A model generated the notes under the pieces. It worked only from the letters and a program-made list of their open reading frames with translations, did not search any database and was not told the origin of the DNA. The translations under genes were made by a program, and so were the position numbers. Source: Tubulanus polymorphus (lineage: Eukaryota > Animalia > Nemertea). Taken from it: a stretch of DNA of 64,000 nt. Location of the stretch: the NCBI RefSeq assembly GCF_964204645.1, contig NC_134029.1:2852001-2916000 (forward strand), read 5' to 3'. Below, piece by piece: positions 9,580 through 30,199 of this stretch (positions are counted from its first letter, which is position 1; each line of letters starts with the position of its first letter).

Positions 9580-12500
9580 ATGGAAAAACACGCGGGACTT
9601 ACAACAAGCTATTCAAAACTGGTAAGTACGACGCTTTTTACGCGTGAAATTTCGGTTTTCAAGTTTTACTTTCATGTTTTAGGTAAAATCATCAGTAAAT
9701 TGTCTATAATTCTAGTATAGAAATATACTATAGTCTACAAAGTAAGGTTTATTTAAAGTTTGAATTAAAACGCTTCATTTACAATCAAATTTTGTAAAAT
9801 GTACGATTATTCGTGAGTTCAAGCGTACGCGTTTTTAGTTCGACCGCGTGTTGTGTTCGATTACTTTCGGTATTTTCCGCCATTTTCCGTTGAGACTATA
9901 ACGGCTTCGTTAACTGATCTTCTTATTCCTCTAATTTACAGCACGTTTTTTTCTGATTTCCTCTCATTATAATTTCATTTCTTTCGCGTGCTTCCAGTGA
10001 AATTAACACGACCTTCCAATAGAAATCAATGAATTAAGGAAATAATGAGCTTCGTTTGAACATGGAAATCTTGACTTATAATAATTAAGGCTCTTCTGAA
10101 TGATCCTCATTAATCAATGATTTTTGTTTTGTAATTCAAAATTTTCACAACAATTCGTAATAACGATAATTCGTTATTCGACTATTGTTTTTGAAACCCT
10201 TTTCGAAAAAAGATCCCATATTTCATAGTGTGAAATATTCATAATTGAGTTATAGATAATACAGATATTTAACAGTTTAGTTAAGACTTGCGTTAAAGGT
10301 GTGTCCGCGATTGTTCCGCTTAATGAACACAAGAATCTGCCAAAGTGTTTGAAGTTTGTTCACCCACACAGAAATCTCCATTCATTCGGTTTAGACTATA
10401 GAATGAGCATAATGACCACACACTAGAATTCAATTCATTATGAAACTGACTTAGTTCTACGCTACAATTAATCGAACTACGCCCAGTTAGCCTCCACGAT
10501 TAGAGGGTGGGAACTTTCAAAAACCTAAATTCGCCTTTTGTCAGTGGCTGTTATTGATTGGAATGCAATGCTAATATCGAATCACTGCCTTGAAATCTCA
10601 ACCGTTTAACCCAAGAATTTAGAGAATCAATCCTACATGAATAGGTTAAAGTAACCGCGTTGACCTGGTATCAGATCAAAAGTGAAGACTGCTAATACTG
10701 AAATACAGCTTACTGAATGAATGAGGAGAGAATCCCACAATGATAATAAAAAGTCCGAAAAAGAAACTCAGGAATTCCTGAGGATGACTATTAGGATATA
10801 GTCGAAACGTTGAAATAAACTACTATCTCGAAGTTTCTTTTTCGGACTTTTTATTATCATTGTGGGATTCTCTCCTCATCGCGTCAACACGGATATAGTG
10901 TTCTACCAATCGTGAACTGAATGAATACTTTCTATTTACAGGTGTTATACATATGTCTCTTACATCTTTCTACATTCATCACATCAACGTCATCACAGAC
11001 GATAGGTAAGCCATATCCGAAAAACATAATATCCTTGATTATCAACGAATATTCTATTGTAGCAAGATAAGATAGTTTTGATGAAATCTCGCATTCGCCA
11101 GGCGGCGCTGCTTTATTAAGTAGAACCTCCCTGCGTACTGCTGATCTATAGTATGTAATCCCTCACATACTCTACAATAAAAAAAAAACTTTCATTGATA
11201 AAAATGCTTCAAAAATAGAAAATAGATATTTGTGAAAAAGGGAAGTAAGAAGCAGTGACAGGAAGTAAGAAGCAGTTACATGAGACCATCCTGATTGGCC
11301 CAAATACACCGTACATCAGCCTATTGTCCAATAAAAAAACACGGCACTTGGATTTTCAAACTGGTTTTTTGCTTCCCATTTTTTCCACCTGTATTCAAAT
11401 ATACCTATAATGAAAGTCATATATATTTTATGCATTATCTCATAGTAACCGATGCCAAGGGTAGAAACATATTCGGAGTAATCGATGAATTTTTGAATGG
11501 TGAACATTATTTTATTGGCAATTATTGCTTGAAGCTTCTCTGTAGCATAGTGCTTACTTTGAGTTCTAGAGCCGCTTTTAAAATCGTAGTGCCTAGCATC
11601 CGCTTCATATGACGCTTATCATATCTCACGCCTGTTTTTTGATTGCATTTATAGATTTCTTGAATTAGGGAAGAATTCGTCTGCTTTGCTTTTCTAACAA
11701 CAGATATCGCGAGACTTCGCTTTACAATGCAACATTAAGATGATATTAACAATTTTGAGCTTGTATTGTTTCAAACAGGATCAGGTGTCGAAGGCATAAA
11801 TATATTTGGGGTTGCAGCTGGTTTGTATTTCATATCGTGATGTGTTTTTGTGTGTAAACTAACTCTCCATTCAATAATGGACACCATACATTTTGGGGTC
11901 TATAATTCAATCTCGTATAAGTGTACCGCGATTAGGGCCCAGTTCCACAAACACAAATTTAACTCCTCGTCGAATTTAATTGAATTGACAAAAAAATTAT
12001 CGATCGAATTGATTTACGAGTTTCTTTTTAAAAAAAGAAGCAAGCATACGTGTAAGTATGACTAACTGATCTTAAAACTAGGGCCAGTCCTATATAACCA
12101 ATCCTACAATCTAAGGCTAGTTAGTGTAAGCTCCTTTGCCTTATTGGGAATCAGCCCTCTGATACCGAAAAGTTTTCTCGGATAAAAACAAATCATAAAG
12201 TTCAATTCCTGACAGTGTATGGCCAAAGATAAGGTAACACTAACCGTAGTTTGCTGTCCGGAGCTGTCCTCAAGTATTGTCGTGTGACTCTTCTACTAAC
12301 TTTTCACATGTATTTCGTGTATATATCATTGTATTTTGTGCGTAATTTCTCTGTAAAATGTAAACAAATAAACATACATGAAATAATTTTTTTTTTGGTA
12401 TTCATATTTAAAACTTAACAATTTCCAAAACTTTATTCTTATTTACATCCGAACGAAATGATGATAACGTATTGATAAGTTGAGTAAAAACATGGTATTT

Positions 12501-27500: not shown

Positions 27501-30199
27501 AGACTGGATCTCCTGGAATAACAGGTCAAACTGGTGAAACTGGTGCGACTGGTGCAACAGGACCTCGTGGTGAAACTGGGTTGACGGGTATCACAGGCGC
27601 TACCGGTGCAACTGGATTGCGAGGCGCCGAGGGTCAAACCGGACAGACAGGTGCCACTGGTATTACTGGTGAAACGGGAGCAGTAGGTATGACTGGTGAT
27701 ACTGGTATGACTGGTCTCACGGGCTTAACTGGTGCAACTGGAATGATCGGCGCGACTGGAGCCACAGGTCCAACAGGTAAGTGTGTATCTATTAAACACG
27801 TGGCAATATACGAAAACAATGATTCAAATATGAGATAAAAACGAATTCTTCCTTCCTTTCTATCAGGTTCGATCGGGCCTACAGGAACTACAGGACAAAC
27901 CGGTGCTGTCGGTATGACCGGACAAACTGGATTAGAAGGTAAAACTGGTGCAACGGGTGCAACTGGTCAGATAGGGCCAAGTGGTCAGACTGGAGCAACT
28001 GGTAGAACAGGAGCAACTGGGTTGACTGGTATGAATGGCCAAACAGGCATGACTGGTCAAACAGGAGCCACTGGTATGACAGGAGCACAAGGTATTACCG
28101 GTATTACTGGAAGAGAAGGTATAACTGGTCTAACCGGAGCTATTGGAGCTACAGGAATGTCTGGTATTACCGGTATGACAGGTGAGACAGGTCTCACTGG
28201 TGCAACTGGATTACCAGGAAAAATTGGCCCAACTGGAAATACCGGTCCTACCGGTCAAGTGGGCGCTACGGGCGCTACTGGGATGACCGGACAGTCAGGG
28301 CACACAGGTGCATCTGGGCAAACTGGTGCTACGGGTCTGCGTGGTTTGACAGGTCAGACTGGTCGCACAGGACCAACTGGACAAACAGGAATGACCGGTG
28401 CAGTCGGTGAAACTGGAGCGTCTGGTATAACGGGTGCGATAGGCGCTACAGGTCCTACTGGTAAAACGGGACCTACCGGAGCCACTGGTCCGAAGGGTGA
28501 GTCTGGTATAACAGGAGCAATGGGACCAACTGGACCTATCGGATTAACTGGCCAAACTGGACAGAAAGGAGATATCGGTCCGACTGGCGTAGCTGGCCGA
28601 ACCGGTTTAACAGGAGCTACTGGACCAAACGGAGTAGCTGGGCAGACTGGTCCGAAAGGAAATACAGGTGAAGCTGGTCCTCGCGGTTTCTCAGGTGCCA
28701 CTGGTCAAACTGGTTCACCCGGTCAGGCATGGACAGGTAACTAATCATTCATTCGAAATATGCCTTTTCCTCGAAAGAATCATCTGCCTATCTTCATCTT
28801 TTATTGGTTAATCTTATATTCAATTTTCAGATACGAATTACTGTCTTAAAAACAACGGAGGTTGCAACCAGACGTGTGTAAATACCTACAATGGATTCTA
28901 TTGTAAATGTAATCAGGGATACACGAAACCACCCCTGACTGATATACCCGCAGAATGTAACGACCCGGCAAAAGTGCACTGTTTTCACACACCCCATGAT
29001 GGAATACAATGTATATGTACGATAATAGCCAACTTCAAAGTCATCGCTCTCAATGGAAGTACATGCGTGGGTAAGTTTCGGTCAGGATGCTAGTCGGTAT
29101 GGATGCCACAGCTTCATTCATCCCCTTTTCAACTGTGAAAATATCGTTTCTCTTGTTTTTTCTTAATGTTGATATCTCAATGTTATTTCAGATCATAACG
29201 AGTGTGGTCTCGGTTACCACGGATTCTGCGAACACATATGTACGAATACGTATGGTTCATCCGTCTGTTCCTGTTACGACGGTTATAAACTATTGCCGAA
29301 TCGAAGATCGTGTCTGGGTACGTTTTATCGTCACTGTTGACATCAATTTCATTCTTAAGTTTGGTTTTAGCATCATCTAGATATTACATATAACCTGATG
29401 TGAAATAAAGGAATGAGAAAAAAAACGTTTATTATAAACAATTGAGTCTTTATTTCTTTTATAGATATTGACGAATGTGCGACCAAAAACGACGCTTGTC
29501 CACAAGGCACTAAATGCGTCAACACAATTGGAAAATACTATTGTTTGTCAGTAGCTTTAACTGCTACGCCCGGTAAGTAAATGACATCAAATAACCGTGA
29601 ATGGAAAATCACATTAAAGGATATTGAAGAGAGTAATCAAGGGTGGATTTAGCCAGGAGGGGGCCTTATAAACCCGTATCAAAAGCTTGGAGTCTACGGC
29701 TTGTGCTATTCATGTTCCGTGTACATGAAGATACAACGCCTGACGTTTTGTGCTCCCAATTCTGAATTCCTCGACCCGCCCCTGTAACCTACATGGTAAA
29801 CGGGTAGTTCAATATTTATGTTCTCGTTTTCCTGCAGGTAAAGCATCCCCCGCTGCTCAGAAAGCACAGAATCCGGCACAGAACGGAGACATTTCGGGCT
29901 TGATAACCACAAACACCACTCTGATAATTTGGGTGGCGGTTCTTACTGTGTTACTTCTCGTCGTTGGCGCTGTGAGTTTCTGGCGCTGGCGTCGGGATCA
30001 CTGTTCTAATGACGCTATGAGTTCATCGAACGGTAGTTTAGCGGGCGCTGAAAGCGGTAACAGGTACAGCCCGGGTTCGCCAGAATTTGAACAGTTTATC
30101 GGCGATGCGGTCGCGTCCGTGCACGCAGCCGGATCATCGTCGACTACGATCGACGAATCGACGACGAACAATTCAGATTCAACGGGCACCAGATTATGA
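9580..30199 (+). CDS. Giant Thr-rich (Gly-X-Thr) collagen with C-terminal EGF modules and a transmembrane helix (~5,170 aa, type I membrane topology)
   Basis: Exons joined in frame via GT-AG: 9580-9621 and 10942-11005 ([32 protein letters not shown] signal); 11779-11820, 12547-12830, 12929-13155 (N-domain); collagen exons ~13642-15559, 15707-16282, 16395-18545, 18648-18763, 18851-20488, 20583-20654, 20831-23098, 23195-24023, 24104-25418, 25503-27776, 27866-28736; EGF exons 28831-29070, 29192-29317, 29465-29572; last exon 29838-30199 ([26 protein letters not shown] ... STGTRL*). AATAAA at ~30810 and ~30851. Confidence 0.88.
10721..10915 (+). mobile_element. Penelope-like insertion: perfect 48-bp inverted repeat, minimal hammerhead ribozyme, ~35-nt tail and target-site duplication
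   Basis: Inverted repeat 10721-10768 / 10832-10879. The loop holds CTGAGGA-tgactat taggat atagtc-GAAACGTT (10778-10811). ACTGAATGAAT flanks both sides (10712 and 10916). Confidence 0.8.
10774..10815 (+). ncRNA. Minimal type-I hammerhead ribozyme motif
   Basis: CUGAGGA core, 6-bp stem II (gactat/atagtc), GAAAC, and palindromic AACGTT in place of helix III. Confidence 0.65.
29638..29784. mobile_element. Degenerate short DNA-transposon derivative (hAT-like MITE)
   Basis: Ends caagggtggatttag ... ctcgacccgcccctg form imperfect TIRs around a GC-richer block in a collagen intron; no clean TSD. Confidence 0.4.

Follow-up and report, generated by a model that had tools for sequence, protein, structure and literature searches.

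A giant Gly-X-Thr collagen gene of the ribbon worm Tubulanus polymorphus with a predicted C-terminal membrane anchor

Can one animal gene encode a collagen rod longer than a micrometre that is held at the cell surface by its C-terminus? The question is raised by a 64,000-nucleotide (nt) stretch of the genome of the ribbon worm Tubulanus polymorphus (contig NC_134029.1, positions 2,852,001 to 2,916,000; hereafter the window, in whose numbering all positions are given), where a preliminary description had pointed to eleven Gly-X-Y-coding exons followed by a membrane anchor. With 19 exons spliced at GT-AG boundaries between an ATG at 9580 and the stop codon at 30199 on the + strand, we obtained a single reading frame of 5,158 amino acids (aa) whose sole stop lies at the very end, and six-frame translation of the window confined Gly-X-Y runs to the same strand, between 13651 and 28729. 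We think it probable that a single spliced gene encodes this predicted type I membrane collagen, three chains of which would form a sugar-stabilised rod of ~1.3 µm that serves as a long surface-matrix fibre.

The conceptual protein opens with a predicted signal peptide (aa 1-~33) and an N-terminal domain (N-domain, aa 36-206), continues with the collagen helix (aa 209-4878) and ends with EGF modules (aa 4881-5029), a 36-aa stalk, a predicted transmembrane (TM) helix (aa 5066-5086), the residues Arg-Trp-Arg-Arg and a 72-aa tail. The domain order proposed before holds from the helix through the EGFs and the TM helix to the tail, but the helix does not directly follow the signal peptide: the N-domain of ~170 aa, encoded by exons 12547-12830 and 12930-13155, separates the two. 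The type I topology that had been proposed is supported by hydropathy (best 21-mer 2.67), by positive-inside charges (three basic residues after the TM helix, none before it) and by the equal architecture of two homologues described below. Exon 16 encodes one EGF with a ~36-aa insertion bearing four extra Cys, and this 10-Cys exon is followed by two EGFs of calcium-binding type, the last with 4 Cys only.

The helix consists of 1,556 Gly-X-Y triplets (4,668 residues) in two runs of 1,430 and 126 around a single Gly-Ile-Gly register shift, and the eleven collagen exons (13643-28736; 72-2,274 nt each) sum to 14,025 nt. Thr occupies the Y position in 1,006 of the 1,556 triplets (64.7%) and Pro in 77; overall Pro amounts to 26 per 1,000 residues, with X-Pro in 2.8% and Y-Pro in 4.9% of the triplets. 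These counts bear out the ~14.0 kb of coding sequence, the ~1,550 triplets and the Y-Thr-rich, Pro-poor composition given in the preliminary description. The X position is mainly Ala, Leu or Gln, the bulky residues Leu, Gln, Lys and Met all occurring there, and the most frequent triplets are GAT (303), GLT (159), GQT (147), GET (77), GKT (62), GST (59), GIT (53) and GMT (43). Y-Thr becomes denser along the helix, with 34 per 100 triplets at its N-terminal end and 75 per 100 close to its C-terminal end; Pro per triplet runs from 0.37 in the first 30 triplets through 0.04 in the middle to 0.23 in the last 60. At the collagen rise of ~0.286 nm per residue, the 4,668 residues give a computed length of 1,335 nm (1.33 µm), which agrees with the ~1.3 µm estimated earlier.

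When the helix residues were shuffled (n=200), the longest run averaged 7.4 triplets and reached 13 at most, compared to 253 in one exon of the gene. We found no exact DNA repeat of at least 30 nt in the helix and no internal duplication that outscored shuffled helices (13.7 at best, against a null maximum of 17.0), which, together with the lack of a fibril-type period, indicates that the helix is old and diverged, and neither a recent tandem array nor a collapse artefact. We rejected an initial suspicion of a D-period of about 78 triplets, as comb and Fourier tests did not show it; the comb peaked at 71/142 triplets in figures that carry no multiple-testing correction, and triplet autocorrelation at lag 392 exceeded shuffles (n=200; P 0.015 or less) with no local duplication behind it. 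Salt-bridge types are counted as KGE 25, KGD 7, RGE 16 and RGD 2, and in the long run 47 of 96 Y-position Lys/Arg are followed by Glu/Asp in the next X, though Glu and Asp together make up 8% of X. Such Lys/Arg-Gly-Glu/Asp triplets mark genuine triple helices, according to a passage of PMC11923368.

Transcripts, exon phases and variation

Four read runs (X1-X4) were placed on 12400-31400, a stretch that begins downstream of exons 1 and 2. X2 was taken as RNA from its joints, and X1, X3 and X4 read through the introns. X2 shows joints for 13 of the 16 introns in this stretch, each of them where the model places its GT-AG boundaries, and one spliced X2 contig of 3,605 nt, from a single study, runs from 25961 in exon 14 to 30282 through collagen, the three EGF exons, the TM exon and the untranslated region (UTR). 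Thus, the collagen and EGF/TM exons lie on one transcript, as had been assumed, and do not belong to separate genes. The gene is real and is transcribed as spliced RNA over most of its length. A joint in X4 (20100-21487) has non-splice ends and one side of 22 nt and was taken as mis-mapping.

Each of the eleven collagen exons begins and ends in phase 1, nine of them have a length that is a multiple of 9 nt, and the frame is kept if exon 4 or 5 is spliced to exon 15 or 16. Exon skipping could therefore yield a short isoform as the main product, the giant form being minor or tissue-restricted, but we regard this as improbable: all 13 X2 joints link adjacent exons and no exon-skipping joint occurs, a result that shows the long form to be present and not short forms to be absent, as contigs drop rare forms. 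A division into two genes, one for a secreted N-domain protein and one for a collagen-EGF-TM unit, or a misassignment of the signal peptide exons, would fit the lack of observed joints at junctions 1/2, 2/3, 4/5 and 5/6; we consider it highly improbable, since the exon phases fit one frame, X2 depth, ~10 at the 3' end, declines steadily towards the 5' end, where it is 1-2, as befits one long transcript, and signal peptide, N-domain and collagen are contiguous in the two homologues. As these homologues align from their first residues, they lend indirect support to exons 1-2 and to junction 4/5.

X1 contigs of 2.3, 7.1 and 5.0 kb, which may derive from the source sample itself, span most of the helix with 4, 40 and 39 differences, a coverage that, like the lack of repeats and duplications, speaks against an assembly artefact. 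The 40 differences considered, out of 161 listed, comprise 30 coding changes, 21 synonymous and nine replacement, an excess of synonymous changes over the 29% synonymous share (binomial P 3e-6), and no triplet Gly is hit (zero among nine replacements, P ~0.05). Together, these two features show that the collagen gene is under purifying selection. In intron 4, at window ~13395-13437, the X1 contigs diverge into loose ends, pointing to an indel polymorphism.

The conserved Gly also bears on whether the chains would fold as collagen. The very low Pro content, and the failure of Gly-X-Thr peptides to fold without glycosylation, might suggest that the repeat is O-glycosylated and extended like a mucin, or packs as a polyglycine-II bundle, instead of forming a triple helix. 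Such a structure is very hard to credit, however, given Gly at every third residue across ten introns and 4,668 residues with one break, the sparing of Gly among the replacements, the enrichment of salt-bridge triplets and the bulky residues in X.

An unnamed family and its place among collagens

Within the window, the N-domain profile matches exons 3 and 4 only. The domain, predicted to be beta-rich at low confidence, has no match in Pfam, NCBIfam or PDB sequences, and its model gave no Foldseek match at E 0.001; compared with known folds, the model resembles generic beta-sandwiches (best VIA Z 5.4), and the Atlas feature scores for DUF4082, PHR and Lectin_like (0.76-0.85) lie under the 0.9 bar. 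A search of 1.84 billion protein representatives, which did not return the gene's own product, gave two matches at E <= 0.001, Capitella teleta ELT93466.1 (432 aa; E 1.1e-04) and an unnamed 85-aa fragment. The former (P0008; CAPTEDRAFT_198011, UniRef R7TPM3) is an uncharacterised protein that aligns with the spliced N-domain at 30% over 161 aa (pairwise E 7e-16); its single-sequence model was unusable (predicted local distance difference test, pLDDT, 37). A three-member profile, searched against proteins of <= 2,000 aa, found P0010 (529 aa, Logan; E 2.3e-25). With exon 3 alone as query, none of 203 candidates (166-2,000 aa) proved homologous, and the 101 and 181 stretches picked up in two metagenome scans yielded no confirmed match.

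Both full-length homologues, ELT93466.1 and P0010, have a signal peptide, an N-domain, a short Gly-X-Y stretch, EGFs, a TM helix that precedes basic residues, and a tail. The N-domain, the EGFs and the TM/juxtamembrane region are conserved between the T. polymorphus product and these two proteins, whereas the tail sequences are not. The homologues also share GAT triplets, a last EGF with 4 Cys and a Ser/Thr-rich tail with the ribbon worm protein, and differ from it in lacking the insertion in the first EGF and in having 15-17 triplets instead of 1,556. The non-collagen termini, to which the preliminary description had looked for relatives, thus led to an annelid homologue, but one whose helix counts only 17 triplets. 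The Capitella record is a gene prediction that possibly misses exons; P0010 lies on a 1,936-nt contig, so the short form appears real. Judged from their sequences, these proteins are an unnamed spiralian family of predicted type I membrane collagens, hugely lengthened in T. polymorphus. As leads only, the Atlas model of P0008 residues 26-196 resembles unnamed Actinomycetota and Bacteroidota domains (TM-score 0.62-0.77), and the feature likeness of the P0008 N-domain to unnamed sponge and annelid clusters is 0.92-0.93. The modelled N-domain is possibly a widespread undescribed extracellular domain.

The architecture had been placed outside the named collagen families, and Pfam scans and the termini uphold this. 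The protein has the long Gly-X-Y repeat of the Collagen domain (PF01391). Pfam scans did not find a COLFI propeptide, and the C-terminal exons encode EGFs and a TM helix, which sets it apart from the fibrillar collagens; these have ~330-340 triplets, against 1,556 in the ribbon worm protein, and their genes differ in exon size and phase, being built of small phase-0 exons of 54/45 nt. Neither did Pfam scans give an NC1 match as for collagen IV or spongin, and the helix has one interruption, not many. The MACIT collagens XIII, XXIII and XXV resemble the ribbon worm protein in their membrane-anchored, releasable collagen ectodomain, but, as described in a portion of PMC4678570, they are type II proteins with interrupted short helices, a conserved C-terminal Cys motif and furin shedding, none of which is seen here. 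The predicted anchor is opposite to that of the named transmembrane collagens, lying at the C-terminal end with basic residues on its C-terminal side. Collagen XVII is also counted among the membrane-anchored collagens.

Similar in chemistry is the cuticle collagen of Riftia pachyptila, which is ~1.5 µm long, compared to 1.33 µm computed for the ribbon worm helix. It combines a very long helix with a globular domain and has glycosylated Thr replacing hydroxyproline (Hyp) (excerpts of PMC11766948, PMC11923368 and PMC2443231), and the predicted ribbon worm protein would match it in a micron-long helix with a terminal globular domain, dominant Y-Thr and low Pro. However, Riftia cuticle collagen is an extracted annelid protein with no membrane anchor reported, whereas the ribbon worm protein is known from sequence alone, and the link appears to be a chemical resemblance only. 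In animals, Gly-X-Thr chemistry is known from Riftia cuticle peptides, and it is not frequent in eukaryotic collagens (a passage of PMC11923368). Siboglinid gene predictions hold no long gene matching Riftia cuticle collagen, according to one section of PMC12403961, and the giant annelid collagens of that section, of 7,719-8,859 aa in alvinellids plus one in Eisenia andrei, several-fold longer than fibrillar collagens, have X-Pro in 33-40% and Y-Pro in 22-33% of triplets, far from the ribbon worm values, so the Riftia gene is still missing. The section does not describe the termini of these giants, and two of the supplements have no match for 'collagen'. One paper, seen in excerpt, doubted that giant cuticle collagen molecules were single chains (PMC2443231).

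The preliminary description had gone further and proposed the gene class behind worm cuticle collagens, which finds no support so far: the host is a nemertean, the annelid homologue is short and the giant annelid collagens are Pro-rich. The family might still be the missing class of micron-long, Thr-glycosylated worm cuticle collagens, made as type I precursors that are nucleated by their anchors and later shed, the N-domain being the globule that electron microscopy shows at the end; the nemertean would then share annelid surface-matrix machinery. We give this a modest chance, as the homologue searches either covered proteins of <= 2,000 aa or missed the gene's own product.

Large size by itself is not new: an alga has >4,000 aa of collagen repeat (bioRxiv 2021.10.08.463732, in part), and bacterial collagen-like proteins are stated, in an excerpt, to reach 2,000 triplets. 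NCBIfam bacterial collagen-like models score 134-143 against cut-offs of 325-500. In the literature, judged from listings with most subscription journals outside their coverage, we found no protein with the order signal peptide, collagen, EGF and C-terminal TM helix, and none of the listed titles on the species (17 of 19) concerned collagen.

Some bacterial proteins have a comparable layout. In the sections of PMC8968730 that describe them, streptococcal Scl1 and Scl2 likewise have an N-terminal globule, a collagen stalk and a C-terminal anchor, and Bacillus BclA, which is glycosylated, is Thr-rich as well; the Scl proteins are bacterial, with 50-79 triplets in the examples and a cell-wall anchor instead of EGFs and a TM helix, so this is an analogy only. 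The identical polarity would suit a retained membrane protein whose very long stalk lifts the N-domain past microvilli or mucus, a receptor or adhesin like Scl and not a matrix fibre. The make-up of the homologues (N-domain, short collagen, EGF, TM helix, tail), the conserved TM and juxtamembrane residues and an ectodomain without a furin site speak for such a stalk, whereas 1,430 unbroken triplets with conserved Gly exceed the usual need for a spacer and the tail sequences are not conserved; we hold it to be rather unlikely, though worth keeping in mind.

Features of the locus and its neighbours

The features of the collagen gene are collected in Table 1.

Table 1. Features of the collagen gene in window coordinates. 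P0008, P0009 and P0010 are homologous proteins; a joint is a spliced exon junction in run X2.
Feature	Position	Strand	Content and support
Exon 1	9580..9621	+	Start codon and aa 1-14 of predicted signal peptide; aligns with P0010 N-terminus
Exon 2	10942..11005	+	Predicted signal peptide hydrophobic core, aa 15-35; best 11-mer hydropathy 2.26; homologues' signal peptide at equivalent place
Exon 3	12547..12830	+	N-terminal domain (predicted beta-rich), first half, aa 36-130; intron 3/4 spliced in X2; homologous to Capitella ELT93466.1
Exon 4	12930..13155	+	N-domain, second half, aa 131-206; homologous to P0008, P0009, P0010; alignment gap coincides with intron
Exon 5	13643..15559	+	Collagen, ~212 triplets, Pro-rich cap at start; X2 depth absent over most of exon
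Exon 6	15707..16282	+	Collagen, 64 triplets; X2 joint 6/7
Exon 7	16395..18545	+	Collagen, 239 triplets; 7/8 as matching loose ends in X2
Exon 8	18648..18764	+	Collagen, 13 triplets; X2 joint 8/9
Exon 9	18851..20488	+	Collagen, 182 triplets; X2 joint 9/10
Exon 10	20583..20654	+	Collagen, 8 triplets; X2 joint 10/11
Exon 11	20831..23098	+	Collagen, 252 triplets; X2 joint 11/12
Exon 12	23196..24023	+	Collagen, 92 triplets; X2 joint 12/13
Exon 13	24104..25417	+	Collagen, 146 triplets; X2 joint 13/14
Exon 14	25503..27776	+	Collagen, ~252 triplets; sole Gly-Ile-Gly interruption near 27491-27505; on 3,605-nt X2 contig from 25961
Exon 15	27867..28736	+	Final 96 triplets, X-position Pro higher; Pfam Collagen (PF01391) 1.2e-47, 160 bits; X2 joints 14/15, 15/16
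Exon 16	28831..29070	+	EGF-like with Cys-containing insertion, 10 Cys; PF14670 1.4e-08
Exon 17	29192..29317	+	Calcium-binding-type EGF; PF14670 1.4e-09, EGF_CA 4.8e-05; D-x-N-E-C consensus
Exon 18	29465..29572	+	Calcium-binding-type EGF, 4 Cys only, stalk start; EGF_CA 5.5e-09; both homologues truncated likewise
Exon 19, coding part	29838..30199	+	Stalk, predicted TM helix ~29918-29980, Arg-rich stop-transfer, 72-aa Ser/Thr-rich tail, stop
3' UTR	30200..30785, end approximate	+	X2 contig to 30282; X2 depth in bin 30152-30785, zero beyond; AATAAA at 30811

A thrombospondin-like gene on the - strand (~7400 down to 1246; TSP_3 repeats 1246-1739, EGFs 4222-5171) and the collagen gene are in head-to-head orientation; the starts of these two matrix genes are ~2.2 kb apart, and they may share a promoter region. 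On the other side, an LDLa exon (33532-33912) and seven-transmembrane exons (43952-45475) on the + strand suggest one relaxin-receptor-like (LGR) gene (33532-45475), inside which lie a single-exon G-protein-coupled receptor gene (35722-36669, - strand) and one of two near-duplicate PAN + WSC genes (42521-43592 and 46361-47293, - strand). Further along, a TRP channel exon (58844-59647) is 100% identical to XP_074650290.1 of T. polymorphus, a palaeonemertean, and 60179-63225 on the - strand holds repeated EGF exons, then a tandem Cys-rich repeat exon (60179-60709) without a Pfam match.

Assembly and fate of a surface rod

If the protein is a long surface-matrix fibre, as we favour, its signal peptide would direct the chain into the endoplasmic reticulum, where the C-terminal helix would anchor it. 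Once in the membrane, three such chains would come together and wind up in the C-to-N direction, with Pro-richer caps at both helix ends, the anchor replacing the absent C-propeptide; reportedly, Bulleid et al. in 1997 replaced a propeptide by a TM helix. As a rule, a trimerising domain at the C-terminus nucleates collagen helices, which then close in the N-terminal direction (a passage of PMC11923368); alternatively, nucleation might occur at the N-terminus, as in the streptococcal Scl proteins. Pro fills the Y position only 77 times, so Hyp can add little, and the rod would be stabilised by O-glycans on ~1,000 Thr together with Lys/Arg-Gly-Glu/Asp salt bridges. Unless galactosylated, (Gly-Pro-Thr)10 stays a coil, and Thr glycosylation is also what Riftia cuticle collagen depends on (excerpts of PMC11923368 and PMC11766948), which makes O-glycosylation the likely stabiliser.

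The rod would be displayed with the unnamed N-domain at its far tip. In our estimate, there is about an even chance that a cut within the 36-aa stalk releases it into a secreted coat or tube, and permanent tethering to the membrane is a somewhat weaker prospect; with no furin-type site in the ectodomain, shedding would need another protease. Tube secretion by the animal itself is described for a Tubulanus species, in a passage not on T. polymorphus (PMC11167275); in annelids, apical secretion delivers the collagen fibres of the cuticle (PMC8789280, in excerpt).

Several observations weigh against a long, matrix-forming rod from one gene. The RNA support comes from one run of one study, its kind inferred from joints; read support for junctions 1/2, 2/3, 4/5 and 5/6 is wanting, the latter two not being seen in X2, where depth is almost nil. 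The N-domain model is poor (pLDDT 47), and the P0008 helix of 17 triplets and the interrupted P0010 helix of 7 + 8 resemble ordinary surface proteins. Comb and Fourier tests found no axial period for fibril packing, and the furin-type motif R-x-K/R-R is absent from the ectodomain, its sole instance following the TM helix. Nemertean skin is ciliated and is not known to have an annelid-type collagen cuticle.

The family would predate its giant helix, which could reflect a ~90-fold lengthening in the ribbon worm lineage or a shortening in the relatives found, and the change in length may have proceeded through phase-1 exons holding whole triplets. What emerges is an architecture outside the named collagen families, with a predicted C-terminal anchor and an unnamed domain as cap, kept between nemertean and annelid members whose helix lengths differ ~90-fold. 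A full sequence is now available for Gly-X-Thr chemistry, and the conserved ends provide search handles for asking if the giant cuticle collagens derive from membrane proteins by shedding, an issue that dates from the 1990s. The finding also raises how a cell folds and exports what would be a membrane-tethered rod >1 µm long.

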